This document shows, piece after piece, positions 3,450 through 31,864 of a stretch of DNA of 32,000 nt. Source of the stretch: an uncultured Chloroflexia bacterium (GTDB taxonomy: Bacteria; Chloroflexota; Anaerolineae; Anaerolineales; Anaerolineaceae). Under the pieces are notes generated by a model. The model saw only the letters and a program-made list of their open reading frames with translations. It made no database searches and was not told the DNA's origin. Positions within the stretch are counted from its first letter, which is position 1; each line of letters begins with the position of its first letter. Both the position numbers and the translations under genes were made by a program. Location: positions 4,020,001 to 4,052,000 of the forward strand of contig OY969938.1 in the NCBI GenBank assembly GCA_963704755.1, in the 5' to 3' direction.

Positions 3450-3465
3450 CGTAAAGGGAAAACGA

Positions 3466-3507
3466 TACCTCCTTCTTCTCTTGTATTTCCAGGAGAAGAG
3501 GGAGGTA
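3466..3507 (+). terminator. stem-loop after capsid gene (pyrimidine arm / purine arm)
   Basis: TACCTCCTTCTTCTC (3466-3480) pairs with GAGAAGAGGGAGGTA (3493-3507): 15 bp including one T-G pair, with a 12-nt loop. There is no clear U-tract, so its function (partial terminator or mRNA stabiliser) is inferred. Confidence 0.35.
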
Positions 3508-3534
3508 CAAGAAATTCTGAAAATGAGGTGAAGC

Positions 3535-3957: not shown

Positions 3958-3969
3958 AGGCGATAAGCG

Positions 3970-4233
3970 ATGGAAGTCATCCTCTCACGCAGCGTAGCAA
4001 TCCACGGGGTGGGGTATGCAGCCGGAACCCGGCTGAACCTTACGGACGACGAAGGCAAGGTGCTGCTCTCGATGGGTAAAGCCACCGTGGCCCCAGCGCC
4101 GGTTTTGGCAGAAACGACACCCGAACCGGACCAGGAAGAAAGCGACCCGGTTCAGCCCGGCGAAGATGCCGTTTCCGCGGAAACGGCGGAGACGCCCTCC
4201 AAGGGCGGCAGGAAGAGCGACCGCAAGTCGTGA
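3970..4233 (+). CDS. hypothetical small phage protein with acidic/Pro-rich tail
   Basis: 87-aa ORF, co-oriented in the head module. The RBS is weak. I recognise no family. Confidence 0.5.
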   Translation: MEVILSRSVAIHGVGYAAGTRLNLTDDEGKVLLSMGKATVAPAPVLAETTPEPDQEESDPVQPGEDAVSAETAETPSKGGRKSDRKS

Positions 4234-4239
4234 TTATCT

Positions 4240-4278
4240 GCCCTCCCCTCCCCATCTTGTTTGTAGGGAGAGGAGGGC
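4240..4278 (+). other. stem-loop (C-rich arm / G-rich arm) between head genes
   Basis: GCCCTCCCCTCCC (4240-4252) pairs with GGGAGAGGAGGGC (4266-4278): 13 bp with one C-A mismatch. No U-tract follows. Confidence 0.3.
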
Positions 4279-4297
4279 TCGACCGGCAGGAGAAGGT

Positions 4298-12677: not shown

Positions 12678-12959
12678 AAATAATTCTTGTCTTAGCATAA
12701 CGTATAAAGCAGGCACACCGTAAATTGGGATTCACAGGTAAGCTGGATCGTCGTCTGTCTAATCGGCATTTTTCCACTCTCCAGTATCAAAAAAACAAAG
12801 ATGTTGCGAATTTTTCGTCTCGCCCCCAATAATGTTTAAAAGCGAAGGCCAGACCTGCCAGGGCCTGGCCCTCTCACCAACCGACTGCACGCACAGCCGG
12901 TAGGCTTCGAATGTTAAAGAAAATTCAATCTCACGACGATCAAAAAAACTGGGCAAAAG

Positions 12960-13034
12960 TGGGCGCGAGAGGGCTCGAACCTCCGAACCTCACGGATGTG
13001 AACCGTGCGCTCTGACCAACTGAGCTACGCGCCC
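12960..13034 (-). tRNA. tRNA-Val (anticodon CAC)
   Basis: The reverse complement is GGGCGCGTAGCTCAGTTGGTCAGAGCGCACGGTTCACATCCGTGAGGTTCGGAGGTTCGAGCCCTCTCGCGCCCA. It folds into a cloverleaf: acceptor GGGCGCG/CGCGCCC, D stem GCTC/GAGC, anticodon stem CACGG/CCGTG with loop TTCACAT, T stem GGAGG/CCTCT and T loop TTCGAGC, with discriminator A. CCA is not encoded. The variable loop looks 6 nt long, which is slightly unusual. Confidence 0.85.
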
Positions 13035-16535: not shown

Positions 16536-16646
16536 GTAGCTGCTCGGGCCATCGTTATAAAGTTACCGAATTTGAGGTGTGTGCGAGGGTGAAGCCCTCG
16601 CACACACCTCAAATTCGGTTTTTAACCCGTTAAGCCGGGCAGCATG
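16536..16646. repeat. modular palindromic element, copy A (core type I)
   Basis: Outer repeats are GTAGCTGCTCGGG (16536-16548) and CCGGGCAGCATG (16635-16646). The spacers are 16 and 15 nt. The core hairpin spans 16565-16619: ACCGAATTTGAGGTGTGTGCGAGGG, loop tgaag, CCCTCGCACACACCTCAAATTCGGT (25 perfect bp). Confidence 0.8.
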
Positions 16647-16688
16647 TCCAAAGAGTTTTTGTTGCCAATGCAAATTTTCAGATTGTGT

Positions 16689-16705
16689 TACAATCCCGGC
16701 CAATG
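16689..16705 (+). promoter_or_regulatory. extended -10 (TGTTACAAT) placed 8 nt before the ATG; near-leaderless start
   Basis: The sequence reads TGT-TACAAT (16689-16694), then cccggcca, then ATG at 16703. No Shine-Dalgarno sequence is present. Confidence 0.4.
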
Positions 16706-17278
16706 AACCGCCAGATCAACCCGCGCCTGTTGGCGTCCGAACCCATGCAGCGCTGCAAATTAAGCCAGTGCAAGGGTGCTTGCTGCCTGTACGGCGTCTG
16801 GCTGGATGAGGTCGAGTGGCAGGATATCCTGGCCAACGCCGGCCTGATCCTGCCTCACATGCCGCCCGGCCTGGACCAGCCAGACGAATGGGTCGACGGC
16901 CGCCGCGATGCGGACGAGTTTTCGCAGAGCGGGTCGGTGATCCACACCCGCGTCATGACTGACAAAAAGCATTATGGCGGGACCGCCTGCGTTTTTTTAC
17001 GGGATGACCATAAATGCGCCTTGCAGGTCGCCGGCCAGGCCGCCGGGCTGCACCCCTGGCGTTTCAAGCCGTTTTATTGCGTTCTTCACCCGCTGGACCT
17101 GGACGAGCAGGGCCGCATCACCCTGGATGAGACTGCCGAACTGCTGGACGAGGAGGGCAGTTGCCTGCGCCCATCCGACCAGGAAATACTCTTACTGGAT
17201 ACCTTCGAAGAAGAGCTGCGCTATTTATTGGGGGATGAAGATTACCAGGCCTTGCTGGCGGGAAAGAATACGGCGTAA
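16703..17278 (+). CDS. Cys-rich protein, CxxCxxCC/YkgJ- or DUF3109-like putative metal-cluster protein
   Basis: MNRQINPRLLASEPMQRCKLSQCKGACCLYGVWL... plus later ...GGTACVFLRDDHKCALQ...KPFYCVLHPL match the Cys pattern of the UPF0153/DUF3109 clan (from memory). The GTG at 16685 lies inside the promoter-like sequence. Confidence 0.6.
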   Translation: MNRQINPRLLASEPMQRCKLSQCKGACCLYGVWLDEVEWQDILANAGLILPHMPPGLDQPDEWVDGRRDADEFSQSGSVIHTRVMTDKKHYGGTACVFLRDDHKCALQVAGQAAGLHPWRFKPFYCVLHPLDLDEQGRITLDETAELLDEEGSCLRPSDQEILLLDTFEEELRYLLGDEDYQALLAGKNTA

Positions 17279-17291
17279 ACTAAAAAGAGAC

Positions 17292-17402
17292 GTTGCTACT
17301 CAGGCTGATTCGGAAATTTGGGACGTTTTATTTGTTTCCCGCATGTTTGACTCGCGAAAAACAAATAAAACGTCCTTCTTTTTGGGGTAGCTGAGCAGCT
17401 CC
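17292..17402. repeat. modular palindromic element, copy D (core type II); probable bidirectional terminator
   Basis: Outer repeats are GTTGCTACTCAGG (17292-17304) and CTGAGCAGCTCC (17391-17402), with 16- and 15-nt spacers. The core spans 17321-17375: GGACGTTTTATTTGTTT pairs with AAACAAATAAAACGTCC (17 bp), plus 3 more bp beyond a 2x2 internal loop. TTCTTTTT follows. The element lies between convergent genes. Confidence 0.7.
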
Positions 17403-17415
17403 CAAGAAATTTGAT

Positions 17416-18855
17416 TTACTCCCCCTGGCCCAAAGAATAACCGCGCTGGCCGTCGAAAGTAAATAAATTTACTGTTTGGATAATCTCAAACCCGGCCGCG
17501 ACCACTCGCCCGAGCAAGGCCAGGATATCCTTGTTGGTCAGGGCCAGATCCTCGCTGGAAAAGCGGCAGCGCCAGTGGTCCGTACAAAACGTTTCCGGGA
17601 GCCCATCCGGGTACACCCGCACCCCGCGGTTGGTGATCAGGCCCAGCTTGAGGCAGCCGTCGTTCAACGCCTCCATGCGCCGGCCAATCACCTGCGGATC
17701 GCGCTCACCCTCGTCCCAATCGACGAACACATCTACCCCAACCAGCGTTTTTTGATGTTCGACTGCCGGGGTAAGTTTGAACTTAATTTCGCCTCCCCTG
17801 AAATGGGCCGGCGGTAGCCGCTGAGGCGCCTGGCCCAGGCGTTCGATGACCGCCTCCGCGAACCTGCCGGTGGTTACCTTCTCGCGGCTGACACCCGGGC
17901 GGTAAATATCGGCGGTGTGATAGCCGTCCTCCAAAGTGCGCAGCCAGGCATTCTGGATGGTCTCGGCGGTAGGCGCGTAGCCCAACTGGACCAGCATCTG
18001 GATGGCCGCCTGGAGCAGCCCGGAGGGGTTGGCAATACCCCGGCCGGCGATATCTGGCGCCGAGCCGTGGATGGCCTCGAACATCGAGGCCTGCCGGCCG
18101 ACGTTGGCCGAGCCGGCCAGGCCCACCGAACCGGCTACCTGGGCCGCCACGTCGGAGAGGATATCGCCGTACAGGTTCATGGTCACTACCACGTCCAGGC
18201 TTTCCGGGCGAGCGGCTGCCAGGGCGGTGCCAATGTCGATAATCTGGTGGTCGGCTTTGATATCGGGATATTCCTGGGCTACTTCGATGAACACGCGATG
18301 GAACAGCCCATCGACGATCTTCATGATGTTGTCCTTGGTCATACAGGTGACCCGTTTGCGGTCGTAAGCCCGCGCGTACTCGAAAGCAAAACGGATGACG
18401 CTCTCCGAGCCCGGCCGGCTGATAAGCTTCATGGCCTGAGACACTTCGCAGGTCTGCTGGTATTCGATCCCGCCGTATAAATCTTCTTCATTTTCACGGA
18501 CGATCACCATCTCGATGTTGGGAAACGCCGAAGCCACAAAGGGCATATAGGCCTTGCACGGGCGCACGTTGGCAAACAGCCCCAATGACTTACGCAAGGT
18601 CACGTTGATGCTCTTGTAGCCCCCGCCCAGCGGGGTGGTGATCGGCGCTTTGAGCAGGATGCGGTTGCGGCGGATCAGGTCCCAGGCCTCGTTGGGAATG
18701 CCCGAAGTGATCCCCTTGAGGAAAACTTTCTCGCCGATTTCGATCTCGTCATATTCCAGGGGCGCCTGGGCGGCCTGCAATATGTCGATCACCGCCCGCA
18801 TGATTTCCGGGCCAATTCCATCCCCATAGGCTACAGTAATCCGGGTTTTCTCCAT
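17416..18855 (-). CDS. icd: isocitrate dehydrogenase (NADP), long form with C-terminal extension
   Basis: The product has a beta-decarboxylating dehydrogenase core: MEKTRITVAYGDGIGPEIM...NLYGDILSD...GSAPDIAGRGIANP. About 140 extra C-terminal residues resemble the Thermus-type ICDH architecture. Confidence 0.85.
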   Translation of the reverse strand: MEKTRITVAYGDGIGPEIMRAVIDILQAAQAPLEYDEIEIGEKVFLKGITSGIPNEAWDLIRRNRILLKAPITTPLGGGYKSINVTLRKSLGLFANVRPCKAYMPFVASAFPNIEMVIVRENEEDLYGGIEYQQTCEVSQAMKLISRPGSESVIRFAFEYARAYDRKRVTCMTKDNIMKIVDGLFHRVFIEVAQEYPDIKADHQIIDIGTALAAARPESLDVVVTMNLYGDILSDVAAQVAGSVGLAGSANVGRQASMFEAIHGSAPDIAGRGIANPSGLLQAAIQMLVQLGYAPTAETIQNAWLRTLEDGYHTADIYRPGVSREKVTTGRFAEAVIERLGQAPQRLPPAHFRGGEIKFKLTPAVEHQKTLVGVDVFVDWDEGERDPQVIGRRMEALNDGCLKLGLITNRGVRVYPDGLPETFCTDHWRCRFSSEDLALTNKDILALLGRVVAAGFEIIQTVNLFTFDGQRGYSLGQGE

Positions 18856-18882
18856 TCGGCAGTCCTTTCGGTACGAGATGAA

Positions 18883-18925
18883 GCGTATCTGATTTGGGCG
18901 GCGAAGCCGCCCAAATCAGATACGC
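18883..18925. repeat. perfect 20-bp hairpin with GCGAAGC apex in the icd upstream region
   Basis: GCGTATCTGATTTGGGCGGC, loop gaa, GCCGCCCAAATCAGATACGC. AAAAATTATTTTTT follows on the + strand. It lies 27 nt upstream of the icd ATG, between divergent genes. Confidence 0.75.
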
Positions 18926-19061
18926 AAAAATTATTTTTTCAGCGGTTCTAAATCATACCTGATCCGAGTTAGATTATCCAGATATCTTTCCTTAACCAAT
19001 GCCCAAATCCTACAATTTTGATAGGACCAACCTGTATAGCTGTTGAGGCGGGCGTTCGGTA

Positions 19062-19076
19062 TATAATCAGCCTATG
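19062..19076 (+). promoter_or_regulatory. -10 box TATAAT 6 nt upstream of ATG (leaderless-type start)
   Basis: TATAAT (19062-19067), then cagcct, then ATG at 19074. There is no SD. The start is supported by an immediate signal peptide. Confidence 0.5.
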
Positions 19077-20162
19077 CCCAAAGCTAAAAAATGGTGGTGG
19101 ATTTGGCCGGCTGCGCTGATGCTGATCTTGAGCAGTGCGGCTTGTGAAGCACGCGGCGTGCCCGGCTCGCGGCTCTTGACTCCCATTGGACAGGTCGTTG
19201 TGGTCACGGCCACCCCGGCGCCGACCCTGCCCGCCACCGAAACCGCTCTGCCCGTGGATACGGCCGCCCTGGCGATCGCCGCCGCGCTTCCGAGTGAAAC
19301 TGCCCAACCCACATTTTCCGAAACGGCGCCGCCTACTACGGAATTATCACCGACTGCCAGCGAGACGGCTACTTTTGGTCCCAGCCCCACGGCTTCCCGC
19401 ACGCCCACACGCACCCGCCGGCCGACCAGCACACGCCTGCCCAGCCGGACGCCGCTGCCCAGCCGCACACCGACCTTGACCATGACCGCCACGCCCCCGC
19501 TGGCGATGATGCGTATTCAAAAACCGGGGCCGTATTCCAAAGTGTCCTCGCCCATCGACCTGGAAGCCCTGATAACGCCCGGCGACGATGGGTACATCTA
19601 CGTCCAGTTGATCGGTGAAGATGGCAGCATCATCACCCGCCAGGCTTTGGACTTCCACACCTATTTGAACCGCCATTTCTATATTAACCCGCATATCCCC
19701 TTCGATATAAAAGCCGCCTCCGAGACGGCCCGCCTGGAAGTGAGCATTCAGGACAGTTTTGGGCGGCCTATTTACCTGAGTTCTGTGGACCTGGTATTGA
19801 TGAGCCTGGGCAACCCGGAAATTTACCCCCAGCAAGTTGTGCAGGAGCCCTACCTGATCCGTTCCCCCCGGGATGGCGAAACGGTCAGTGGTGGAGTGCT
19901 GGCGGTGGATGGACTGATCGGGGCGGTCAACGACCAGCCCTTGCAGTTCGAGTTGATCGATGAAAACGGCCAGGTGGTCGGCTCGGCCAGCCAGGATATT
20001 TCCCAACCCTATGGGGACCTATCTCACGTGCCCTTTACCGTTTACATCCCCTATTCGGTGACCCAATCCACCAACGTCCGCCTGACCATTCGCCAGGATT
20101 CGGGCACGCGCATCCCCGGCACGGTCTGGCTGCAAAGCATGCTTTTGACCCTGGAGCCCTAA
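19074..20162 (+). CDS. secreted lipoprotein with Pro/Thr-rich linker and two Ig-like (Gmad2-like) domains
   Basis: Signal peptide with lipobox-like motif: MPKAKKWWWIWPAALMLILSSAAC. A ~100-aa P/T/S/R low-complexity linker follows. The C-terminal repeats (...PGPYSKVSSPIDLEA...YVQLIGEDGSII... and ...IRSPRDGETVSGGVLAVDG...FELIDENGQVVG...) resemble Gmad2-type Ig-like domains, recalled from memory. Confidence 0.6.
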   Translation: MPKAKKWWWIWPAALMLILSSAACEARGVPGSRLLTPIGQVVVVTATPAPTLPATETALPVDTAALAIAAALPSETAQPTFSETAPPTTELSPTASETATFGPSPTASRTPTRTRRPTSTRLPSRTPLPSRTPTLTMTATPPLAMMRIQKPGPYSKVSSPIDLEALITPGDDGYIYVQLIGEDGSIITRQALDFHTYLNRHFYINPHIPFDIKAASETARLEVSIQDSFGRPIYLSSVDLVLMSLGNPEIYPQQVVQEPYLIRSPRDGETVSGGVLAVDGLIGAVNDQPLQFELIDENGQVVGSASQDISQPYGDLSHVPFTVYIPYSVTQSTNVRLTIRQDSGTRIPGTVWLQSMLLTLEP

Positions 20163-20169
20163 AGAAAAC

Positions 20170-20220
20170 CGAAACGGAGGGGTATGACCGGGTAAAGCCC
20201 GGTCATACCCCTCCGTTTCG
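20170..20220. terminator. perfect 23-bp hairpin between convergent genes (terminator, at least for the minus-strand gene)
   Basis: CGAAACGGAGGGGTATGACCGGG, loop taaag, CCCGGTCATACCCCTCCGTTTCG. On the minus strand it is followed by GTTTTCTTT. On the + strand an A-tract precedes it. Confidence 0.7.
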
Positions 20221-20225
20221 AAGGA

Positions 20226-20972
20226 TCATTCCGAGGCAGTCAACTGGATAAAGCGGGGGTTTTCAGAAAGCGAGGCCAGGTCCGGGTCTTCGCGGGCCAA
20301 CTGACTGCCGGCCGGGAATAGCTCCAGGGCTTTTTCGAGCTCGGCCAGGGCCGGATCGGGTAAAGCGACCGTGGCATACAGGCAGGCCAGATCGTAGTGG
20401 CCCACCCCCTGGATCAGCGGGGTTGTACCGACCTTCTCCAGGTCCTGGGCAGCCATTTCTACCAGGCGTGTGGCACTGGGGGATGCCCCCAGCCCACGGT
20501 AGGCTTCGCATAGGTGCCCGAGCGGGTGGATGTAGCCATTGTTCAATATATAGCTGAGGAAAGGCATGCCGGGATGGGCCAGGTTGCGCGAAGGGTCGCT
20601 CAGGTCTCGCTCTTTGAACTGGCCAAGCGCATCGACAAACGCGATCATGGTATCCTCGGCCTGTTTTTTGATGGTAGGCAAGGAAACGTGAACGAATTCA
20701 CTGAAGTTTTGCCGGTTGACCATTTCATATTCCGGGTAAGCGGGTGGCTCTTGTCCACGGGCCAAATAGGCCATCACCTGGATTGCCCGCCGGCGCCAGT
20801 ACATATTGTGGGCCAAAACATCTTTGGGCGACCAGTTCGTAAAGGTCCCTTCCGAGCTTCGTTCGGATTCGCTCAGGCGGTGGAGAAATTCTCCCTCCGC
20901 CCGGTAAGCATGCCGGACGATCTCGATCACCTGTTTGACCAATGGATCCCGTTCCAGGATTACTTTTTTCAA
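20226..20972 (-). CDS. DinB/ClbS-like four-helix-bundle protein with TPR-like C-terminus
   Basis: ...FTNWSPKDVLAHNMYWRRRAIQVM... resembles the DinB/DfsB-type motif. The start appears to be TTG (20972-20970) after GTGGTGAAG. There is no in-frame ATG for 56 codons. Confidence 0.55.
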   Translation of the reverse strand: MKKVILERDPLVKQVIEIVRHAYRAEGEFLHRLSESERSSEGTFTNWSPKDVLAHNMYWRRRAIQVMAYLARGQEPPAYPEYEMVNRQNFSEFVHVSLPTIKKQAEDTMIAFVDALGQFKERDLSDPSRNLAHPGMPFLSYILNNGYIHPLGHLCEAYRGLGASPSATRLVEMAAQDLEKVGTTPLIQGVGHYDLACLYATVALPDPALAELEKALELFPAGSQLAREDPDLASLSENPRFIQLTASE

Positions 20973-21000
20973 TTCTTCACCACTTTCTTAAGAAAATAAC

Positions 21001-21142
21001 CACGGATGGGCACAGATGCACACAGATGATTTTTAAAAGGATTAATATCGTTTCGAAATTGTAGTTTTTGTGGGGTTTCGCCTCGCAAAAACTACAATTT
21101 CGAAACGTATAAAGAATCTATGTCCATCCGTGCTCATCTGTG
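21001..21142. repeat. hairpin F (21049-21107) flanked by five 10-bp-phased CACRGATG octamers
   Basis: The octamers are CACGGATG (21001), CACAGATG (21011) and CACAGATG (21021) on the left, and inverted CATCCGTG (21125) and CATCTGTG (21135) on the right. In the core hairpin CGTTTCGAAATTGTAGTTTTTGTGGGG pairs with CCTCGCAAAAACTACAATTTCGAAACG: 25 Watson-Crick plus 2 G-T pairs, with loop tttcg. Confidence 0.75.
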
Positions 21143-21151
21143 GCATTTTGT

Positions 21152-21571
21152 TTATTCGCCGATGATTTTGATCAGCACGCGCTTGCGCCGGCCGCCATCG
21201 AATTCGCCGTAAAATATCTGCTCCCAGGGGCCGAAATCCAGTTTACCGGCCGTGATGGCAACCACCACTTCACGGCCCATCACCTGGCGCTTCATGTGGG
21301 CATCGGCGTTATCTTCGCCGGTGCGGTTGTGCTGGTAGGAAGACACCGGCTCATGGGGGGCCAGTTTTTCCAGCCAACGGTCGTAGTCCTGGTGCAGGCC
21401 GCTTTCGTCATCGTTGATGAATACCGAGGCGGTGATATGCATGGCGTTGACCAGCACCAGCCCTTCCTGGACCTGGCTGTCCCGCACAGCCTGTTCTACA
21501 TCCGGGGTGATATTGACAAATCCCCGCCGCGCAGGGATGTTAAACCAAAGTTCCTTGCGAAATGATTTCAT
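21152..21571 (-). CDS. yjbQ: YjbQ/UPF0047 family protein (secondary thiamine-phosphate synthase-like)
   Basis: [29 protein letters not shown]...[30 protein letters not shown]...[41 protein letters not shown] is a characteristic YjbQ sequence. ATG 21571 follows AAGGTGGA. The ORF track's start at 21580 is a GTG inside the RBS. Confidence 0.88.
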
Positions 21572-21610
21572 CCGATCCACCTTTTAAGTTCTTTGTTTGG
21601 TCCATTGATT

Positions 21611-21722
21611 GTAACTGCTCAGGCAAGTGCGCAAGTCGAGGGTGTTTTTATTATTTTTTGTGCGCGAAGCGCACAAAAAATAATAAAAACACCCTAAACC
21701 TCTGCGGTAGCTAAGTAGTTAC
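21611..21722. repeat. modular palindromic element, copy E (core type II)
   Basis: Outer repeats are GTAACTGCTCAGG (21611-21623) and CTAAGTAGTTAC (21711-21722), with 16- and 16-nt spacers. The core spans 21640-21694: GGGTGTTTTTATTATTTTTTGTGCGC, loop gaa, GCGCACAAAAAATAATAAAAACACCC (26 perfect bp). Confidence 0.8.
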
Positions 21723-21734
21723 CATTGATTTATT

Positions 21735-21806
21735 GTAACTGCTAAAGACCCCGAAATTGAGGTGTTTGCGCGGGCTCTGCCCGCGCAAACACCTCAATTT
21801 CGGGGT
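21735..21806. repeat. modular palindromic element, copy B (core type I, left spacer absent, right outer repeat not evident)
   Basis: GTAACTGCTAAAG (21735-21747) directly abuts the core at 21748-21806: ACCCCGAAATTGAGGTGTTTGCGCGGG, loop ctctg, CCCGCGCAAACACCTCAATTTCGGGGT (27 perfect bp). Confidence 0.75.
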
Positions 21807-21980
21807 AAGTCGAAACCTCGCTGCCACAGTGCCTTTTTCCCTAATCCACTATTCTCCATTTTCTCTTCTCCCTTCCTCCGAATTTGTGGTACAAAATAGA
21901 GGACAGGAAATATGGACAATATCGATAAATATATATAATTAATTGTCCCCCTTGTCCGGGACAGTCAGGATGATCGAAAC

Positions 21981-24779
21981 ATGAATCTGGAAAAAGAGTT
22001 TCAGGGCCCCAACCTTGGCTATATTCTGGAACTTTATGACCGCTACTGCGAAAACCCCGCGCAGGTGGATGAAGCTACCCGCAAATTGTTTGCTCATTGG
22101 GAGCCGGCCCGGGTCGAGGGTTTGCCCCCTCAAGAATTCAATTTCCAGGCCCTGATCGGGGCCGCCAACCTGGCCCAGGCGCTGCGCGCTTACGGCTACC
22201 TGGCCGCCAGGCTGGACCCGCTGGGGACTCCGCCTACCGGTGACCCGCTGTTGAACCTGGATTTTTACAAAACGACTGAGGCAGACCTGTCCAGGCTGCC
22301 GGCCGGGGTCATCTTTTCTAAGGCGGATAGCCGCCCGGCAGGAGAAAATGCCCTCCAGGCTGTTCAAAGGCTGCGCTCGATCTACTGCGGGACGATTGGA
22401 TATGATTACGGCCACATCCGCATTCCGGCCGAAAGGGCCTGGCTGTATCAGGCCGCGGAATCTAGCAGGTTCCGGCCGCCGCAACTGCCCGTTGATGAGA
22501 AACGGTTGCTGGAACGCTTGAGCCAGGTCGAGGCCTTCGAGCTGTTTCTGCATCGCCTGTACCCGGGTAAAACCCGCTTTTCCATCGAGGGCCTGGATAT
22601 GCTCATCCCCATGCTGGACGAGATCGTTGGGGCGGCGCTGCAGGCCAAAATTTGCGCGATCCTGGTGGGTACCTCCCACCGCGGCCGCTTGAATATCCTG
22701 GCTCACGTCCTGCAGAAGCCCTACAGCGAAATATTGGCCGAGTTCCGCGACCCGCGGGGCCGCTCGATGACCTGGGGTGAGATCGGCTGGACCGGCGATG
22801 TGAAATACCACATGGGCGGCTATAAATCGCCCCCCAAGGGGGATGCCATCGACCTGGTCATCCATATGCCGGCCAATCCCAGCCACCTGGAGCAGATCGA
22901 CCCGGTCATACAGGGGATGGCCCGGGCGGCCAATACCGCGGTGGACCAGCCTGGCCCGCCGCAATACTATGAGAATGCCTCTCTGCCGATCCTCATCCAT
23001 GGCGACGCTTCTTTCATCGGCCAGGGCATCGTCACCGAAACGCTGAACCTGTCACGCCTGCCCGGCTACACCACCAGCGGCAGCCTGCACATCATCGCCA
23101 ACAACCAGCTCGGCTTCACCGCTAATGATAGCGAACTGCGCAGCAGCCTGCACGCCAGCGACCTGGCTAAGGCCTTCGAAATGCCCATCCTGCACGTCAA
23201 CGCCGACGACCCCCTGGCCTGTATCGAGGCAGCCCGCACCGCCATCGCTTACCGCCAGCAGTTCCACAAAGATTTCGTGATCAACCTGATCGGCTACCGC
23301 CGCTACGGGCACAACGAAGGCGATGAACCGCGTTTTACCCAGCCGGTCATGTACCAGAAGATCGACCAGCACCCCACCGTGCGACAATTATGGGTCAAAC
23401 AGCTTGGCGGGCAGGGCCTGGCCACGGCGGATGAGGCGGAGCAACTCCTGCAGAAGTATTTACAAAACCTGCAGGCGATCAACGAGAAACTGGACGCCGA
23501 AAAGGCCTTGGACGAGCCGGTGCCGCCGGTGCCCCCCCACGGTGCGGCTCAAAAGGTCAAGACGGCGGTCAGCCTGGACCGGCTGAAGGAATTGAACCGG
23601 GCCATGCTCACCTTTCCGGCCGATTTTCACCTCAACCCCAAGCTGAAAAAAGCCATCGAGCGCCGCCGAGAATTGCTAGAGGAACCCAACGCGGATAAGG
23701 TCGATTGGGCCAGCGCGGAAGAGCTGGCCTTCGCTTCGATCTTGCAAGACGGCGTTGCCATCCGCCTGACCGGCGAAGACAGCGCCCGCGGCACGTTCAG
23801 CCAGCGTCACGCCGTCTTTTTCGACGGCGAAAACAACGCCGGTTTCATCCCCTTGCAATCTTTTCCCCAGGCAAAGGCCTCCTTCGAAGTGCTCAACAGT
23901 CCGTTGAGTGAGGCCGGTGCGATTGGCTTCGAAGTGGGCTATAACGTCCAGGCGCCCGGACGGCTGGTCATCTGGGAGGCCCAGTACGGCGATTTTATCA
24001 ACAATGCCCAGACGGTCATCGATGAGTTTTTGCTCTCCGGGCGGGCCAAATGGGGCCTGACCCCTTCGCTGGTATTGCTATTACCCCACGGCAACGAGGG
24101 CATGGGCCCGGACCATTCCAGCGCCCGCATCGAGCGCTTCCTGGGGTTGGCCGCTGAAATCAACGTGCGCATCGCCTATCCTTCCAGCGCAGCCCAATAT
24201 TTCCACCTGTTGCGCCGCCAGGCGCTGCTGCTGCGCACCGACCCGCTGCCGCTGGTGGTCTTTACCCCCAAGGGACTGCTGCGCCACCCGCTGGTCGCGT
24301 CAAGCCTGGAAGATTTCACCGGTGGGGGCTGGCAGCCGCTCATCGATGACCTCGAACTCCCGGGCGAACGCGAACGCGTCAAATCGATGGTCCTGTGCAG
24401 CGGCCGCATTTATGTCGACCTGGCCGCCAGTGAGCTGCGCAAGGCCTATCCCAATGTGGCCCTGGTGCGGGTCGAACAACTTTACCCCTTCCCCGAAGCG
24501 ATGCTCGCGAAGATTCTGGCCGGCTACCCCGGTTTGGAGCACATCCTGTGGGTGCAGGAAGAGCCGCAAAACATGGGCGCCTGGGATTTTCTACACCCGA
24601 CGCTGCACCGCCTGGCCGGCAAAAAGCTGGCCCTGGATTGCATCAGCCGGCCGGAAAGCTCCAGCCCGGCGGAAGGATCATCCACTCTGCGCGGCATTAA
24701 CCAGCAGGCCCTGATCGAACAGGCTTACCAATTTGAAAAACAAGCCCACACCGCAAGTGTGGTAATCAAAAGAGGTTGA
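21981..24779 (+). CDS. sucA: 2-oxoglutarate dehydrogenase E1 component
   Basis: 932 aa. ...[41 protein letters not shown]... and ...[14 protein letters not shown]... are hallmark SucA segments. The E2 gene follows immediately. Confidence 0.93.
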
Positions 24780-24780
24780 C

Positions 24781-26016
24781 ATGGCAATCAAGATTGAAGT
24801 TCCCGAGCTGGGAGAATCTGTGATCGAAGCGACGGTTTCCGCCTGGCACAAAAAAGAAGGCGACTTCGTAAACGTCGGTGATGTTTTGGTCGAGCTGGAA
24901 ACCGACAAAGTCAACCTGGAAGTCGGCGCCAAAGGTTCCGGCGTGCTGACCCACATCAAGGCCGCCGAGGGCGACAACGTCAAGATTGGGGAAGTGCTGG
25001 GCGAGATCGAAGAATCCGCTGGCCAGCCTGCACTTAAAGAAGCCCCCGCTCAAGCCGTTTCCCAGGCGGAATCCTCTAACCATGACCGTCATGAAGGGGA
25101 AAAGCAAAAAGCCAGCCTGGTGACGCCGGTCGCCGCGCGGATCGCCCAGGATAAGGGCATAGACCTCAGCCGGGTAGCCGGGACGGGCCCCGAAGGGCGG
25201 GTGACCCGCGAAGACGTGGAACAATTTATGCAGGAAGGACGAGAACCGGCCCCAACGGAGACGCGACCGCCGGTTGAATCGCCTCGGATGGATGCAGAGT
25301 TGGCGGCAGGAGACGAGCGCCGCGTCCAACGGCGGCACATGTCCCGCCGCCGGCGCACCATCGCCCAGCGCCTGCTGGAGGCGCGCCAGACCACCGCCAT
25401 GCTGACGACCTTCAACGAAATCGATATGAGCGCCGTGATGGACCTGCGCCACCGTCGTAACGAGGAGTTCCAGGCCCGCTATGGGATCAAGCTGGGTATC
25501 ACTTCTTTCTTCGTCAAAGCGTCCATCAGCGCACTGAAAGCCTTTCCCCTGGTCAATGCCGAGCTGCAGGGCGACGAGATCCTGCTCAAACAGTACTACG
25601 ATATCGGTGTGGCGATCGGCGCGGAGGAGGGCCTGGTGGTGCCGGTGATCCGCTCTGCCGACCGGCTGACCTTTGCCGAAATCGAAAGCCGGATCAAAGA
25701 GCTGATCGCCAAAAGCGACCAGGGCAAACTTTCGGTAGATGACCTGCGCGGAGGAACGTTTACGATCACCAACGGAGGCGTGTTCGGTTCATTGTTCAGT
25801 ACACCCATATTGAACCCGCCCCAGGTGGCCATCCTGGGCCTGCACAAGATCGAAGAACGTCCCATCGCCTTGAACGGCGAGGTCGTCATCCGCCCGATGA
25901 TGTACGTGGCTCTGAGCTACGATCACCGCTTGATCGATGGCCGCGAAGCGGTCCAGTTTCTGGCCCGCATCAAACAACTGGTGGAAGACCCGGAACGGCT
26001 GCTGCTGGAAGGTTAG
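24781..26016 (+). CDS. sucB: 2-oxoglutarate dehydrogenase E2, dihydrolipoyllysine-residue succinyltransferase
   Basis: The product has an N-terminal lipoyl domain ([12 protein letters not shown]), a peripheral subunit-binding domain ([30 protein letters not shown]) and a catalytic C-terminus ([14 protein letters not shown]). Confidence 0.92.
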
Positions 26017-26031
26017 CTTTTTCGGCCGAGG

Positions 26032-28182
26032 TCAGCGGTTGGAGCGCAGCGGGCTGATCCGCTTGCGGGCCAGGAAGAATTCTTGCGAATTCAGCGGCGA
26101 TTCGCCATCCGCCGGGGTCACATACTGGAAAGTGCCATCCGGGTTCATCTGGCGCGCTTTGACGTTATCCGACAGGCCGACTTCCAGAATCTCATCGTGG
26201 ATGCGCTGGACCATACTTTTATCCTCGATCGGGAAGAGCACCTCGACGCGCTGGTTGAGGTTGCGCGGCATCAAATCGGCGCTGCCCAGGTAGATTTTTT
26301 CCTCGCCGTTATTGTGGAAATAATAGATACGGCTGTGCTCCAAAAAGCGTCCCACGATCGAAATAACACGGATGTTCTCACTCAACCCGGGGATCCCCGG
26401 CTTGAGGCTGCAAATTCCGCGTGTGATCAAGTCGATCTTCACCCCGGCTTGAGAGGCCTTGTAGAGCAGCTCGATCATGGGTTTATCGACCAGGGCGTTC
26501 ATCTTGAAGATCAACCGGCCGTTGCCATGGTTGCCCTGGTGCTCGATTTCCTTGAGGATCATTTCTTCGAAACGCTGGCGCAGGTTGATCGGTGCGATCA
26601 GCAGCTTGCGGTAATCATTTTTCAAAGAGTAGCCGGTCAGGTAATTGAACAGGTCGGTAGCGTCGCTGGCGATGTCCTCATCGCAGGTGAACAGCGAAAG
26701 GTCCTCGTACACCGTGGCGGTGATGTGGTTGTAATTGCCCGTGCCCAGGTGGACGTAGCGCCGGATGTGGTTGCCCTCCTTGCGGATTACCAGGGCGATC
26801 TTGGAGTGGGTCTTCAAGCCCAGCAAGCCGTAGGTCACGTGGACGCCTTCCTGCTCCAGCAGCCGCGCCCAGCCGATATTGCTTTCTTCGTCGAACCTGG
26901 CCTTCAACTCCACCAGCACGGCTACCTGCTTGCCGTAATCGCGGCGGGCCTGTAAAAGCGCCTTGACCACCGGCGAGTTCGATCCGGTGCGATAGAGGGT
27001 CTGTTTGATGGCCAGCACCTCGGGATCCTTGGCCGCCATGCGTAGGAATTCGATGATCGGCTGAAAGGAATCATAGGGGTGGTGCAGGAGGATATTTTTA
27101 TCGCGGATCGCCGAAAAAATGACGTCCTCGTCCGAATCGTTGTTCAGGCGCAGCGGGCCGGGCGTGTAGGGCACAAAAGGGTGGTCTTTCAGATCGATGC
27201 GTTCGATGCGGGTCAGCGCAATTACACTGCGCAGGCTGAGCGGGCTTTCCAGAACATAGACGTCGTTTTTGTCCACCCGTAAATTGCTGATCAGCAGATC
27301 TTTAAGATTGGAGGGCATGTCCTTTTTGATAATCAGGCGGACTACCGCTCCAAAACGGCGCTTGCGCACGTTGGTCTCCATCGTTTCCAGCAGGTCGGAG
27401 GCTTCCAGCTCCTGGATTTCCATATCGGCGTTGCGAGTGACGTGGAACAGGTGCGCTCCCAGCACATCCATCCCGGGAAAAAGCGCTTGCAGGTTGGCTG
27501 AAATCAAGTCGGCCAGCCAGACGAAATAATGGTGGTAGGGCACCGTGCCGTCTTTGCGCACACTGCCGGAGGAGCGTTTGATCGGGATAAGCTGTGGCAG
27601 CGAATTGGGTACTTTCACCCGGGCGAACAGCGGTTGGCCTTTGCGGCTTTCCAACATCACCGCCAGGTTCAGGCTAAGGTTGGAGATGTGCGGGAAGGGA
27701 TGGCCCGGATCGATGGCCAGGGGCGTTAAAACCGGGAAAACGATCTCGTTGAAGTAGTCGTTGGCGATCTCTTTCTGGTGGTCGGTCAGGTTCTTGTACT
27801 CGCGCACGTGGATCCCGGCCTGGTCCAATTGCGGCAGCAGGTCTTTATGCCAGACTTCGCGGGCTTCGGTCATCAACCCCAGGGCGACTTTGCGGATCTC
27901 AACCAATTGTTCGGCAGCCGTCATGCCGTCGATCGAGAGGTCCGCCACACCTTCCTCACGCTGCATGATCAAACCGCCTACGCGGACCATAAAAAACTCT
28001 TCCAGGTTAGAGCCCACGATAGACAGGAATTTGATCCGCTCCAGCAGCGGGTTGCTCTGGTCTATGACTTCTTGCAGGACCCTGCGTTGGAACTCCAACA
28101 GGCTCAGCTCGCGGTTGATATAAAGAGAAGGGTTCTCCAAATCGAACACAACCGGTTTTACTTCTTGTTCTTCCGTGGGCAT
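26032..28182 (-). CDS. ppk: polyphosphate kinase 1
   Basis: MPTEEQEV...NPSLYINRELSLLEFQRRVLQE... and later ...HSKIALVIRKE...LGTGNYN... and ...GRFLEHSRIYYF... are PPK1 hallmarks. ATG 28182 is chosen because the ORF track's 28257 start overlaps the upstream gene. Confidence 0.9.
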   Translation of the reverse strand: MPTEEQEVKPVVFDLENPSLYINRELSLLEFQRRVLQEVIDQSNPLLERIKFLSIVGSNLEEFFMVRVGGLIMQREEGVADLSIDGMTAAEQLVEIRKVALGLMTEAREVWHKDLLPQLDQAGIHVREYKNLTDHQKEIANDYFNEIVFPVLTPLAIDPGHPFPHISNLSLNLAVMLESRKGQPLFARVKVPNSLPQLIPIKRSSGSVRKDGTVPYHHYFVWLADLISANLQALFPGMDVLGAHLFHVTRNADMEIQELEASDLLETMETNVRKRRFGAVVRLIIKKDMPSNLKDLLISNLRVDKNDVYVLESPLSLRSVIALTRIERIDLKDHPFVPYTPGPLRLNNDSDEDVIFSAIRDKNILLHHPYDSFQPIIEFLRMAAKDPEVLAIKQTLYRTGSNSPVVKALLQARRDYGKQVAVLVELKARFDEESNIGWARLLEQEGVHVTYGLLGLKTHSKIALVIRKEGNHIRRYVHLGTGNYNHITATVYEDLSLFTCDEDIASDATDLFNYLTGYSLKNDYRKLLIAPINLRQRFEEMILKEIEHQGNHGNGRLIFKMNALVDKPMIELLYKASQAGVKIDLITRGICSLKPGIPGLSENIRVISIVGRFLEHSRIYYFHNNGEEKIYLGSADLMPRNLNQRVEVLFPIEDKSMVQRIHDEILEVGLSDNVKARQMNPDGTFQYVTPADGESPLNSQEFFLARKRISPLRSNR

Positions 28183-28219
28183 CGATCGCAACTCACTTTC
28201 TACGCTTTTCCTGGCCGGC

Positions 28220-29326
28220 CTACAGGTTCTTCCTGCGGGCGATGTTTCCCAACACAATCAGGGCCACACCCAAAAGAAAAACACCAATCAATATGCCCCA
28301 CACCAGGCGCGAGGAGCCGGCCTGGAATAAACCTGCCGTGCTGAGGTGGTTATTCGCCTCGGCCGTAGGTGTAAATTCAGGTGTGTCCTCTAAGGTTGGG
28401 GTGAGGCTGTCGACCTCAGACAGCACCGGCCGTGGGGTCAGGGTGGGGGCTTTCGTCGGCGTAACCTGGCTGTCGTCAGTTGTCGGGGTTAGTTGGGCTG
28501 TCCCTTGCGGTGTAGACTGGCTGGCTGGCAATGTTGCGGAGCCCAATACCGTCGCCCGAGCCGTGCCCGATGGTAATGGGATGACGAGCTTTTCGTCAGG
28601 GTAAACAGTCTGATCTTCCGGTGAAAGGCCGTTTACATTAAGAATATCCACAATTTTGACACCGTAGGCGATGGCAATGGCCCATAGCGACTGCCCATAC
28701 TGGACCTGGTGGATGATTCTGCCATCTGTGCCAGGTGTGGCTAAAACAACCGGAGCGATGAATTGCGAAATCGCTTCTTCAGTTGGCACGTCCGCAGGCG
28801 TTTCGCCCGGCGCCAATGTGTGAGCGGTGGTGGCCGTTGGGGCAGCGCCGCTGCCGGTATAAGCTGCCTGGACGATGTAGTACACCGAGCCGTCCGAGGC
28901 AGTGGCGACGCCGGCCCCGATATCCCGGTAGCTGCCGTTGACCATCGGGATCATATGATCCGCGTCCGACCAGATATAGGCAATTTCATCGATGGTCATC
29001 GGGCCGATGGCAAAGTTTTCGGTTGCATAGGCAATCGATCCTCCGCCGTAGCCGGCCGCCATAACCCGTCCGCGAACGTCGCCGATGTGCCAGGTCATAT
29101 TATTGGCCGCCATCGTTTCAGCAGTTTGCTGGGCTGTGCTCATCAAAATACTGTTCACGTTCAGGGCGGTCAGGCCGTTTCCGGCCCGGTCATTATTGAC
29201 CAATGCGATCAGATCGCTGGCGCTAACCTGGTTTTCTTGTTGGGCTCGGACGGTTCCGGGGAAAGTGAGGGCTAAAAGTGCCCCTAAGCAAACGAAAAAA
29301 CTCACCAATCTATGCCTGAATGTCAT
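28220..29326 (-). CDS. secreted CAP/SCP (YkwD-like) + LysM domain protein with P/T-rich linker and C-terminal TM anchor
   Basis: Signal peptide MTFRHRLVSFFVCLGALLALTFPGTVRA. A CAP-like region follows (...LIALVNNDRAGNGLTALNVNSILMSTAQQTAETMAANN...). The LysM domain is IHQVQYGQSLWAIAIAYGVKIVDILNVNGLSPEDQTVYPDEKLVIP. The C-terminal helix is LVWGILIGVFLLGVALIVLGNI. Confidence 0.75.
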   Translation of the reverse strand: MTFRHRLVSFFVCLGALLALTFPGTVRAQQENQVSASDLIALVNNDRAGNGLTALNVNSILMSTAQQTAETMAANNMTWHIGDVRGRVMAAGYGGGSIAYATENFAIGPMTIDEIAYIWSDADHMIPMVNGSYRDIGAGVATASDGSVYYIVQAAYTGSGAAPTATTAHTLAPGETPADVPTEEAISQFIAPVVLATPGTDGRIIHQVQYGQSLWAIAIAYGVKIVDILNVNGLSPEDQTVYPDEKLVIPLPSGTARATVLGSATLPASQSTPQGTAQLTPTTDDSQVTPTKAPTLTPRPVLSEVDSLTPTLEDTPEFTPTAEANNHLSTAGLFQAGSSRLVWGILIGVFLLGVALIVLGNIARRKNL

Positions 29327-29338
29327 ACGGTTATTATA
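29324..29338 (-). promoter_or_regulatory. -10 box TATAAT 6 nt upstream of ATG (leaderless-type start)
   Basis: On the minus strand: TATAAT (29338-29333), then aaccgt, then ATG (29326-29324). There is no SD and the -35 is weak. Confidence 0.45.
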
Positions 29339-29395
29339 CTGAACTCCCGAATTCTGGCTGAAAATTGATTTCTTAGAAATACGTCCGGCACCGGC

Positions 29396-31360
29396 TTAGA
29401 GGTTTTCTTCACCCGGTAGAGGCTGTTGAGATTGATATATCGATATCCGGTTCCGCCCACCTTCTTTGGCCTGGTACAGCGCCTGGTCAGCCTGGCCGAT
29501 CAATTGTTCGAGCAGGACTTGCTTACCCGGGTGGTAACAGGTCAGGCCGATGCTGATGGTGATAGTCGCCTGGCCTTTGGCGGTCATGACAACGATATTT
29601 TCGACCTGCCGGCGCAGTCGTTCGGCGATATCGGCGGCATCCTCGATACCGGTCTCCGGGAGCAAGATCACAAATTCCTCGCCGCCGTAGCGGCCGATGA
29701 TATCGAACATACGCAGGCTGGTGCGGCAGCGCGAAACCAACGCTTCAAGGACCTGGTCGCCAACCGGGTGACCGAAGGTATCGTTAATTTTCTTGAAGTG
29801 GTCGATATCGACCATGATCAAGGTCAGTTCCCGATTGTAGCGGAAAGATCGTTCGATCTCGCTTTGAGCCAGTTGGAAGAAATAGCGCCGGTTGTAGACC
29901 CCCGTTAGCGAATCGGAAATGGCCATTTCGCGCAGGCGATTCTCAGCCTGTTTGCGTTCGGTGATATCGCGAAAACTGAATAACCAGCCCATTTCTTCGC
30001 TTTCAACCATGTAGGGGGTCACGTTTAATTCGACGGCATAGCCGTTCTCAAGGTCGAACGCCTCGATTAAATTCTTGCCCGGGCGTTCGATCATGCGTTC
30101 GAGCAGGCTGTAATACATATTGGGATTGGTGATCTTTTGGGCAATCACATCCAGGGCGCGGATACCGGGCATGCGCGCCCAGTTATCGTTCAATTCAAAC
30201 ATCGCCTTCAGATGGCTGTTGCTCAAAATCACATTCATTTCACGGTCGATGACGAACATTCCACTTACGGTCGATTCGATCACCGCCCCGGTGAGCGCTA
30301 CGGAACGGCGCAGGTCTAGCAGGGTCTTCTTCTGTTCGGTGATATTGCGAAAAAGCAGCAGGTAGCCGGTCCGTTCCTTTTCGTTGTTAATTATCAGGTT
30401 CGCCCGGATCGAATAGAATTCTTCCACACCGCGTACGCGCAGGGCGATTTCTTCGGATTTCTGGTCATTATTGTAGCCTTCCGTATACCAGGATTCGGCC
30501 AGCGGGAGAATGTCACCAACTTTTTTGCCGATCAAACGGGGGAAGGTCATGCCGGAAATCGCCAGCGCAGAAGGGTTGGCATCGATAACTCTTTTTTGGT
30601 CATCCAGCACCAGGATTGCATCGGACATTTTCTCGATCAAGGTCTCGCGCGCAATCGGCACGATATCGAACAGGCGGAAACGGAACAGCGCCAGCCCGAT
30701 GACCAGGTTGCTGATCCCAAAGGTAATGGGGGTCAGCTCCTGCAGCTTAATCTCGACCATCCCGGTCGCCGTCACGATTGAAGTGATCCAGGGGATGAGT
30801 ATCGCAGCCAGGACGACCGCAACCTGGATGCGGTATAGCTGCGGTGCAGTCATGTAATTGACCACCAGGAACAGGCTGGCCAGGACAATCAAGGTGTAGG
30901 CGTAAATGGTATACAACCCAAAGGCCGGTCCGTCCACAAAAACGAGTTTGGGCAGGGTCTCGCTGTATTGGATAATGGGGTTGGTGCGAAATAAATGGGT
31001 AAATAAATCGGTCCAGACCAGCAGCAAAACCAGGATGGCCAGGGGTAAGAGGTATTTCCAGTTCAGCCGGCTCAGCGGAAATTCGCGATAATTATAGTTG
31101 AGCGCGAATCCCAGGTAAAACAATGGCGCAAATACCGCACCCAGGAATTGCACATTGTTCCAGAACAACATTGTTGAAAGCTGTGTGCTCAAAAGCTGCA
31201 GGGTGTAGGCGAGGGTCCAGATAGCCTCGCTTATGGCAATTAATGCAAAAGGAGTTGCAGCTCGAACATTTCGCCTGTGCCAGGCGATTCCTCCAACCCA
31301 TATTGTTATCCCCGCTGATACCAGATAAGGGAGGATCAGTAATAAATTCCGATAGTTCAT
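29396..31360 (-). CDS. membrane sensor diguanylate cyclase (N-terminal ~7 TM domain, two PAS-like domains, GGDEF)
   Basis: The N-terminal ~230 aa are hydrophobic helices. The middle has PAS-like segments. The C-terminal GGDEF domain has an active-site GGEEF and an I-site RMFD five residues upstream (RMFDIIGRYGGEEF). Confidence 0.85.
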   Translation of the reverse strand: MNYRNLLLILPYLVSAGITIWVGGIAWHRRNVRAATPFALIAISEAIWTLAYTLQLLSTQLSTMLFWNNVQFLGAVFAPLFYLGFALNYNYREFPLSRLNWKYLLPLAILVLLLVWTDLFTHLFRTNPIIQYSETLPKLVFVDGPAFGLYTIYAYTLIVLASLFLVVNYMTAPQLYRIQVAVVLAAILIPWITSIVTATGMVEIKLQELTPITFGISNLVIGLALFRFRLFDIVPIARETLIEKMSDAILVLDDQKRVIDANPSALAISGMTFPRLIGKKVGDILPLAESWYTEGYNNDQKSEEIALRVRGVEEFYSIRANLIINNEKERTGYLLLFRNITEQKKTLLDLRRSVALTGAVIESTVSGMFVIDREMNVILSNSHLKAMFELNDNWARMPGIRALDVIAQKITNPNMYYSLLERMIERPGKNLIEAFDLENGYAVELNVTPYMVESEEMGWLFSFRDITERKQAENRLREMAISDSLTGVYNRRYFFQLAQSEIERSFRYNRELTLIMVDIDHFKKINDTFGHPVGDQVLEALVSRCRTSLRMFDIIGRYGGEEFVILLPETGIEDAADIAERLRRQVENIVVMTAKGQATITISIGLTCYHPGKQVLLEQLIGQADQALYQAKEGGRNRISIYQSQQPLPGEENL

Positions 31361-31662
31361 TCCATTGATATTTCGATGTGCTTATCTAAATTTTGAGGCT
31401 GCCAGGTTTGCCTGGGAATAGCAGTTTTTGCGTTTTACGTAGTCAGCAGGTTCCGCCAAAAAACCACCCTTTGCAACCTAAGCTTGAGGAGAAATAAACT
31501 CCAATTATCATAACGGATTATCGGAATTTTGGGTTAATAGTTTTGCAAGGTGGGCAGCGGGGACTTGTTTAATCCAATTAACTTGTAATAACGGCGTTTC
31601 GCCCCCCATCCCCGCTTCTCCCCAAATCAAAACCCGATTTAGAGGAAAGGGCCGGATTTGTC

Positions 31663-31690
31663 TTGACATTCTAATCGTCGCAGCTAAAAT
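31663..31690 (+). promoter_or_regulatory. sigma-70-type promoter
   Basis: TTGACA (31663-31668), a 16-nt spacer, then TAAAAT (31685-31690). A palindrome AGTGTA-gatag-TACACT (31691-31707) follows immediately. The next + strand ATG lies ~190 nt downstream. Confidence 0.55.
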
Positions 31691-31745
31691 AGTGTAGATA
31701 GTACACTAAAAGACCCGACCAGAAGCCCTGGTCGATTTGTCGAAA

Positions 31746-31864
31746 TTGCGTAATTGCTCAGAATCCTGTTGAAAAGTCCCTGAATTTGAGGTGTATGCGG
31801 GGGCAAAGCCCCCGCATACACCTCAAATTCAGGTTTCTTACCCCCAGGTCGAGTAGTTACGCAA
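31746..31864. repeat. modular palindromic element, copy C (core type I)
   Basis: Outer repeats are TTGCGTAATTGCTCAGA (31746-31762) and TCGAGTAGTTACGCAA (31849-31864), with 16- and 15-nt spacers. The core spans 31779-31833: CCTGAATTTGAGGTGTATGCGGGGG, loop caaag, CCCCCGCATACACCTCAAATTCAGG (25 perfect bp). Confidence 0.8.

Follow-up and report, generated by a model that had tools for sequence, protein, structure and literature searches.

Three long, perfectly paired hairpins in the DNA of an uncultured Anaerolineae bacterium are shown here to be the cores of three non-autonomous copies of a MITE (miniature inverted-repeat transposable element), whose ends are of the type known from the ISBst12 group of the IS66 family of insertion sequences (ISs). 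The stretch analysed, hereafter called the window, comprises 32,000 nucleotides (assembly GCA_963704755.1, contig OY969938.1, positions 4,020,001 to 4,052,000), and its hairpins A, B and C share a core that we call Type I. The MITE family is dispersed in the intergenic DNA of this genome and of related metagenomic Chloroflexi. A first-pass annotation of the window had noted that the arms of the hairpins covary; the covariation is real, and the hairpins do not stand free but belong as cores to MITEs, a context that had been missed. As to how the pairing is kept, we favour, at a probability of about 0.6, a joint reading in which selection acts on the hairpin of a MITE with IS66/ISBst12-type ends and template switching supplies the double changes.

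All three hairpins are present as first described, and each of them is fully paired. The stem of A has the length originally given to it, 25 bp, and those of B and C, given as 27 and 25 bp, are each one pair longer (Table 1). The arms differ at four positions (C/C/T, T/A/T, G/T/A and A/C/G in A, B and C), and as had been claimed each difference is mirrored in the opposite arm. A chance origin of these structures is excluded. The Type I arm pattern occurs six times in the window, once per arm, against 0.00 expected occurrences in 100 dinucleotide shuffles. In total the window contains six perfect hairpins, every one with a stem of at least 20 bp and none with a stem of 12–19 bp, and 30 block shuffles produced no such hairpin at all; the first 16 kb are without perfect hairpins. 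The predicted RNA folding energy of the stems is −54 to −60 kcal/mol, and not one wobble pair is found among the 149 perfect pairs of the window. Attention had also been drawn to the motifs GAGGTG and CACCTC, which recall a Shine–Dalgarno (SD) sequence and its anti-SD counterpart. Both do sit in the arms, but a link to SD and anti-SD pairing finds no support: nothing ties them to translation, and across 23 copies they are no better conserved than the adjacent stem positions.

Each Type I hairpin forms the centre of an element of ~115–120 bp that is bounded by the outer inverted repeats GTAACTGCTCAG and CTGAGCAGTTAC. From the left repeat inwards, a variable spacer of ~16–20 nt ends in the purine tract GAAAG and leads into the 25–28-bp hairpin with its GC-clamped loop of 3–5 nt; a mirror-image spacer and repeat follow, with the pyrimidine tract CTTTTC 3' of the core, and GAAAG and CTTTTC are kept in most copies. 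Most copies have these repeats on at least one side, with 9–12 of 12 positions matching and with the distance to the core constant. The same ends carry at least three unrelated cores, which we distinguish as Types I, II and III. Target duplications are exact (8/8) in three elements, namely the Type II element of the window (CATTGATT) and the elements L129 (CATGAAGC) and L138 (TATTATCG), and imperfect in L142 and L127 (7/8 each) and in L128 (6/8). None of the five elements in the window contains an open reading frame (ORF) of 80 or more amino acids; elements measure 111–119 bp, and all five are intergenic. At least 20 further Type I copies lie on 15 distinct contigs among unrelated neighbour genes; copies adjoin unrelated housekeeping genes, with every gene orientation represented. 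We identify the elements as MITEs because of this combination of small size, absence of an ORF, terminal inverted repeats, a target duplication of fixed length and many dispersed copies. When compared with Rfam 15, the hairpins gave only generic matches to miRNA precursors, far below the gathering threshold, and only the tRNA passes it; permissive thresholds brought up no family for the hairpins either.

Table 1 Core hairpins and elements with IS66/ISBst12-type ends in the window, with their gene setting
Feature	Position	Structure	Gene setting
Type I core hairpin A	16565-16619	perfect; stem 25 bp, loop 5 nt	
Type I core hairpin B	21748-21806	perfect; stem 28 bp, loop 3 nt	
Type I core hairpin C	31779-31833	perfect; stem 26 bp, loop 3 nt	
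Type I element A	16536-16647	left repeat GTAGCTGCTCGG 16536-16547; core 16565-16619; degenerate right repeat CCGGGCAGCATGT 16635-16647	divergent gap, PBP-like solute-binding protein (minus strand) / DUF3109 protein (plus strand)
Type III element (same end type, different core)	17292-17402	repeats GTTGCTACTCAG 17292-17303 (9/12) and CTGAGCAGCTCC 17391-17402 (10/12); hairpin 17321-17375, 22 bp, two transition mismatches side by side	convergent gap, DUF3109 gene / isocitrate dehydrogenase gene
Type II element, complete, unrelated core	21603-21730	repeats GTAACTGCTCAG 21611-21622 (12/12) and CTAAGTAGTTAC 21711-21722 (10/12); perfect 27-bp core hairpin 21639-21695; exact target duplication directly outside the repeats, 21603-21610 and 21723-21730	
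Type I element B, truncated	21735-21806	left repeat GTAACTGCTAAA 21735-21746; core 21748-21806; right repeat none	divergent gap, YjbQ (minus strand) / 2-oxoglutarate dehydrogenase E1 (plus strand)
Type I element C	31746-31864	left repeat GTAATTGCTCAG 31750-31761; core 31779-31833; right repeat TCGAGTAGTTAC 31849-31860	between promoter-like site 31663-31690 and ATG at 31885

The assignment of the ends rests on two traits of the IS66 family, in which ends start with GTAA (GTAAGCG) and 8-bp duplications are characteristic (PMC11946415). The elements described here show both, the GTAA start (GTAACTGCTCAG) and the duplication of 8 bp. Within the family, ISDge4 of Deinococcus geothermalis belongs to the ISBst12 group, encodes a single transposase of 449 amino acids, has the ends GTGACTACTCAGCA and GTAACTGCTCAGCA and generates an 8-bp target duplication (PMC12898284). 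The first 12 nt of the element end are identical to the start of GTAACTGCTCAGCA, and the length of the duplication is common to both. Since end sequence and duplication are those of an IS66-family IS of the ISBst12 group, a transposase of this type presumably moves the MITEs in trans. A related Chloroflexi contig from a metagenome-assembled genome (MAG; L146, GCA_936417505.1) carries a full IS66-family IS of 1,586 bp (2963-4548; 2955-4556 with its duplication), which shows that transposons of this type are active in the clade. Its ends are GTATCCGTTCAG and CTGAACGCATAC, its target duplication is AAACCAAA, and its transposase of 478 amino acids matches PF03050 (DDE_Tnp_IS66) with E = 9.6e-32. 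The ends of the Type I copy in L123 (ATGCGCATTCAG) are closer to the variant of this IS than to the main consensus. As an ISBst12-type MITE the family is small, free of ORFs, intergenic and multi-copy, and here the centre is a perfect hairpin of 25–28 bp; our literature search found no description of ISBst12-type MITEs or of MITEs in Anaerolineae.

A statistical test of the covariation on more copies had been suggested in the first-pass annotation. Our set comprises 23 distinct copies, three from the window and 20 from elsewhere. Metagenome contigs were searched with one arm required and the two most variable sites left free, which yielded 21 loci, that is, 14 distinct hairpin loci, duplicates of some of these, and three solitary arms. 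Five further copies were taken from the same contigs by their outer repeat or by a perfect hairpin, with the core sequence ignored. An earlier, looser contig pattern had returned 109 stretches, none of them a clean hairpin in an exact-complement test; inspection by eye picked out one of these, L090 from an Anaerolinea MAG, as a copy that has decayed. The solitary arms (L124/L141, L125 and L132) match the Type I arm exactly, with no transposon ends nearby (L124 at 2364-2384, the same as L141); with neither a partner arm nor a transposase nearby, they were set aside as chance matches or remnants. A scan of viral contigs gave no complete elements, and a plasmid BLAST gave chance matches only (E = 5).

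At each of the two free sites the opposite arm is complementary in 17 of 18 copies, the pairs being T-A (10), A-T (4) and G-C (3) at the first site and G-C (12), C-G (2) and A-T (3) at the second. Over all 23 copies, 94.4% of the cells are paired, compared with 86.9 ± 0.6 in shuffles. Changes on both sides occur in 15 of 27 pairs (39 cells) against 4.9 ± 1.4, a value that none of 500 shuffles reached, and controls in shifted register gave at most 7 pairs with a two-sided change. The sequences are related, and 18 of the 23 copies had been picked by one intact arm; read with this caveat, the covariation beyond chance, now with 20 further copies included, strongly supports the core helix. Copies that were found through their ends show changes on both arms at many positions beyond the original four: L129b, for example, has a perfect inner stem of 18 bp with a divergent sequence, and L130a has a compensated change from C-G to T-A. 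The interior is fully Watson–Crick in 14 of the 23 copies and has at least one uncompensated mismatch in the other nine, two of which (L090 and L127b) are decayed.

This complementarity is specific to the core. When the left outer half is compared with the reverse complement of the right one, identity is 0.561 within a copy, 0.556 between copies and 0.512 after shuffling, so outer halves of the same copy are no more alike than those of different copies, and element B is perfect in its core despite its lost end. The idea that the element evolves in concert over its whole length, its right half serving as the template for its left half, was rejected on the same comparison. Core complementarity persists in copies that look old or immobile. 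Element B is a case in point: its left repeat abuts the core with the spacer lost and its right end is gone, yet it has the longest perfect stem. Where copies have identical cores, their flanks and spacers cannot be aligned. The variants in A, B and C match core types that recur in other genomes; the core of C differs from that of L138 at the outermost pairs only, and the B type recurs in L123. The compensated changes therefore probably came down to A, B and C from separate source copies and did not arise at these loci. In two strain pairs with an element, 0.46% of sites differ between L126 and L147, none of them in either element, and a difference of ~2.6% between L126 and L139 includes one apex difference in the element.

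Can we decode how the arms stay complementary? In the joint reading, copies that lose the hairpin would not be kept or not be propagated, through selection on a DNA or RNA hairpin, and each double change would probably be a single event of intrastrand template switching when the palindrome is replicated, as in quasipalindrome correction, and not the sum of two independent hits. The role of the hairpin could be to bring the ends together for transposition, to terminate or insulate transcription, or something else. Template switching is an established way in which perfect reverse-complement stems are created and repaired, and one such event can bring compensatory changes at several bases (PMC8794818). 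What it denotes is a process of mutation and not a family of elements, and its action here is read from the patterns of change. The first-pass annotation had put forward selection on a structure and the copying of one arm from the other, which amounts to such template switching, as two explanations. Both survive; we think that both act, and these data do not separate them.

Four observations suggest selection on the hairpin. Whatever its sequence, each type of core found under these ends forms a long GC-clamped hairpin, and variation in the core does not exceed that in the ends. A copy is near-perfect or else badly decayed. Finally, the hairpins came with the elements, and relatives are without them: contigs of the closest relatives found (~72% amino-acid identity), anchored on DUF3109, are partly syntenic and nearly free of long hairpins. 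Contigs of relatives that were anchored on YjbQ show no synteny with the window, and neither set contains an orthologous copy of A, B or C.

One-step copying is suggested by five observations. Without a single wobble pair in 149, the stems are more perfect than selection for stability could enforce. Variants in apex length are symmetric (GGGC/GCCC, GGTGC/GCACC and GGCGC/GCGCC), and where a copy has two mismatches these lie close together, within 3 nt in all four double-mismatch copies examined (17321 and 21049 in the window, L129a and L134b). Stand-alone hairpins of unrelated sequence in the window are likewise perfect. Compensated interior changes, moreover, are mostly of transversion types, for which no G-U intermediate is possible. 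A strand bias of G-U mismatches was considered as a sign of selection on RNA and dropped, as one arm is rich in G and T, so that nearly every single transition reads as a wobble pair in the orientation in which the search found it.

Several points weigh against the joint reading. The IS of L146 is not the direct parent: no more than 9 of 12 end positions agree with the consensus, and the core arms are absent from it. We found no autonomous IS whose ends are exactly those of the elements, the source genome having been read within the window only. Mobility is shown for other copies and not for those in question: no target duplication can be recognised at A or C, and B is without one end. Since 18 of the 23 copies came to light by an intact consensus arm, the core looks more conserved than it is. 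The contrast between compensated interior differences (transversion types in 10/13) and uncompensated ones (transitions in 8/11; Fisher p = 0.038) is weak, resting on small, non-independent counts and falling to p = 0.13 over all columns. Sequence drift would not be slowed if template switching acted alone, and still the core is no more variable than the ends. Lastly, the hairpin may act either as DNA or as RNA.

A less probable alternative is that the palindrome corrects itself and has no function, its arms being kept identical by intrastrand template switching or repair at replication that is much faster than point mutation, and the hairpin being a neutral by-product. The mechanism is documented (PMC8794818), and the perfection of the stems far beyond what stability needs, the prevalence of transversions among compensated interior changes, the symmetric apices and the close spacing of paired mismatches all agree with it, as does the fact that the unrelated window hairpins at 18883-18925, 20170-20220 and 21639-21695 are perfect and at least 20 bp long, with nothing in the range of 12–19 bp. 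Such a palindrome, however, is expected to drift freely, and near-identical cores are found in contigs of 44%–65% G+C whose spacers cannot be aligned. Nor would one expect mismatches to stay unresolved in 9 of 23 copies, with two fully decayed. The near absence of long hairpins from the ~72%-identity relatives, too, indicates that hairpins arrived with the elements and are not a genome-wide product.

Somewhat less probable still is a host RNA element, that is, a bidirectional terminator, insulator or mRNA-stabilising hairpin that the MITE carries and that is under selection at the level of the host. There are precedents in SPRITE, which carries a terminator-like hairpin (PMC3184786), and in other MITE-borne terminator-like elements. 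The apex is GC-rich, most copies keep the A-rich GAAAG on its 5' side and the T-rich CTTTTC on its 3' side, and by a simple scan of the plus strand A and C are terminator-like. The run of T is short, however, and 2–4 nt away from the stem in the family consensus; TTTTT follows directly in A, C has TTTCTT, and B is without a T tract. Position speaks both ways. The copies in L123 and L133 lie 30–40 nt past a stop codon and that in L136 between convergent genes, but all three Type I copies of the window occupy divergent, promoter-containing gaps, none of them after the end of a gene, and C is placed between a strong promoter-like site and a start codon, where a terminator would do harm. Selection on RNA should, furthermore, tolerate G-U pairs and would not keep 25–28 pairs perfect.

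We consider it improbable that the core is a palindromic duplex site for a dimeric protein, be it the transposase or a host factor, at which no hairpin forms. The high conservation of the arms in copies with unalignable spacers would fit, as would the concentration of variation at two positions in the copies selected by pattern. But half-sites predict no covariation at unconstrained positions, and precisely these are complementary in 17 of 18 copies each; copies selected by their ends show many other compensated arm changes. That wholly different cores (Types II and III) are found under the same ends implies that the core is not the recognition sequence of the transposase.

That the three perfect copies are simply recent duplicates without time to decay is very improbable: the Type II element, whose 8/8 duplication is intact, also has a perfect stem, and other copies (L090, L127b) have decayed, as this would predict, but A, B and C have degenerate or missing ends and no target duplications, their spacers cannot be aligned, and their variants are those of core types in other genomes. 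The first-pass annotation had held that frequent arm mismatches in further copies would point to such recent duplication. Mismatches do occur in the nine copies mentioned above, but the conclusion fails, because every difference among A, B and C, at four positions, is compensated, and their flanks are unalignable. Integron attC sites, CRISPR repeats and retron msd were also considered and dropped. No array, integrase, cas gene or reverse transcriptase is in view, the stems are free of extrahelical bases, and duplication of the target is a sign of DDE transposition.

How does the family compare with known repeats? REPINs, which are paired REPs mobilised by RAYT, are likewise dispersed intergenic palindromic repeats that form long hairpins. 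Movement by RAYT, an HUH tyrosine transposase, is not known to leave a target duplication, and membership among REPs or REPINs was rejected here in view of the 8-bp duplications and the DDE-type inverted ends; no RAYT was seen in the window or the examined loci, the whole genome not having been searched. MITEs such as bcr1, ERIC, Correia and SPRITE are, as here, elements of ~100–160 bp with flanking direct repeats, and ERIC has a conserved central inverted repeat. None of these is reported to have stems as long and perfect as those described here. The bcr1 and ERIC types also differ in hosts, ends and duplication, which is 5 bp in bcr1, with a TA motif flanking ERIC-type elements (PMC3184786). 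In bcr1 of the Bacillus cereus group, base-pair compensatory changes keep a double-stranded RNA structure (PMC3184786), and for REPINs two-sided compensation is reported to be common (PMC3116915). Compensated arm changes are thus already known from REPINs and bcr1, and this MITE family was not found described. What is unusual in it is that the central stems are both perfect and very long, that the cores are modular, and that the core is conserved no less well than the ends.

The setting of the elements in the window is an ordinary one. The genes are chromosomal in character, among them isocitrate dehydrogenase, 2-oxoglutarate dehydrogenase E1 and E2, YjbQ, a GGDEF sensor and a solute-binding protein, and the named relatives of their products are from Anaerolineae and other Chloroflexi. 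The first 16 kb contain a long operon-like block on the plus strand and, on the minus strand, a tRNA-Val gene (12959-13034) and four others. Each of the three Type I hairpins is placed in a gap between divergently oriented gene starts. Element B begins 4 bp past the duplication of the Type II element, and elements of this family cluster side by side. In element C the inverted repeat extends outwards, with TTGC at 31746 and GCAA after the right repeat. The promoter-like site upstream of C is sigma-70-like (TTGACA, 16 nt, TAAAAT; 11/12 match); if it is used, the 26-bp hairpin would be part of the 5' leader and end ~50 nt before the ATG.

Further palindromes were noticed in the window and beyond. 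At 20996-21137, a 27-bp hairpin (21049-21107) whose arm, CGAAATTGTAGTTTTTGTGGGG, is similar to that of Type I lies within an outer inverted repeat of another kind, CACGGATGGGCACAGAT and ATCTATGTCCATCCGTG (82%); read on the plus strand, its two mismatches are G-U. It may represent a further family of MITE-like elements with a related core. The perfect 20-bp hairpin at 18883-18925 has a GCGAAGC apex and lies in a divergent gap, 28 nt upstream of the isocitrate dehydrogenase start; there are no IS66-type repeats around it, and it is neither a clear terminator nor a MITE. The perfect 23-bp hairpin at 20170-20220 starts 8 nt past a stop codon between convergent genes, has a T-rich tail on the minus strand and is terminator-like by the scan; it is probably an ordinary, though very long, terminator. 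Many loops, in the window and in L122–L142, are GAA or TTC triloops closed by C-G, which gives GCGAAGC or GCTTCGC. The former is an exceptionally stable DNA mini-hairpin motif and could nucleate fold-back. In L146, another repeat family (8896-8987 and 10066-10160) has the motif CCCCCTGGCCCC...GGGAAAAA before a perfect hairpin in each copy, one with a 19-bp stem and the other with a loopless 27-bp stem, that is, a perfect palindrome of 54 bp. Long, perfect palindromes are more generally a habit of these genomes.

For Anaerolineae and other Chloroflexi, the family offers a concrete annotation for conspicuous intergenic palindromes, namely that of MITEs with IS66/ISBst12-type ends. Perfect palindromes of 55 bp in promoter regions or 5' leaders, as with element C, may affect the expression of neighbouring genes. 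The family also calls for caution in the covariation-based discovery of RNAs, since a mobile palindrome passes the test for helix covariation without being a structured RNA gene. Whether compensatory changes stem from selection or from template switching is an open question in RNA evolution (PMC8794818), and with its many copies, perfect stems, few decayed members and datable duplications the family provides a natural data set on which to address it. A tentative, and on balance unlikely, extension is that the cores are self-repairing palindromes, in which intrastrand template switching, by rewriting one arm after the other arm's sequence, would keep stems of 25–28 bp perfect over the long term and also create new cores. 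If true, this would explain why unrelated perfect hairpins are found under the same transposon ends, and it would make the family a natural multi-copy system in which one-step compensatory evolution could be measured from population data.

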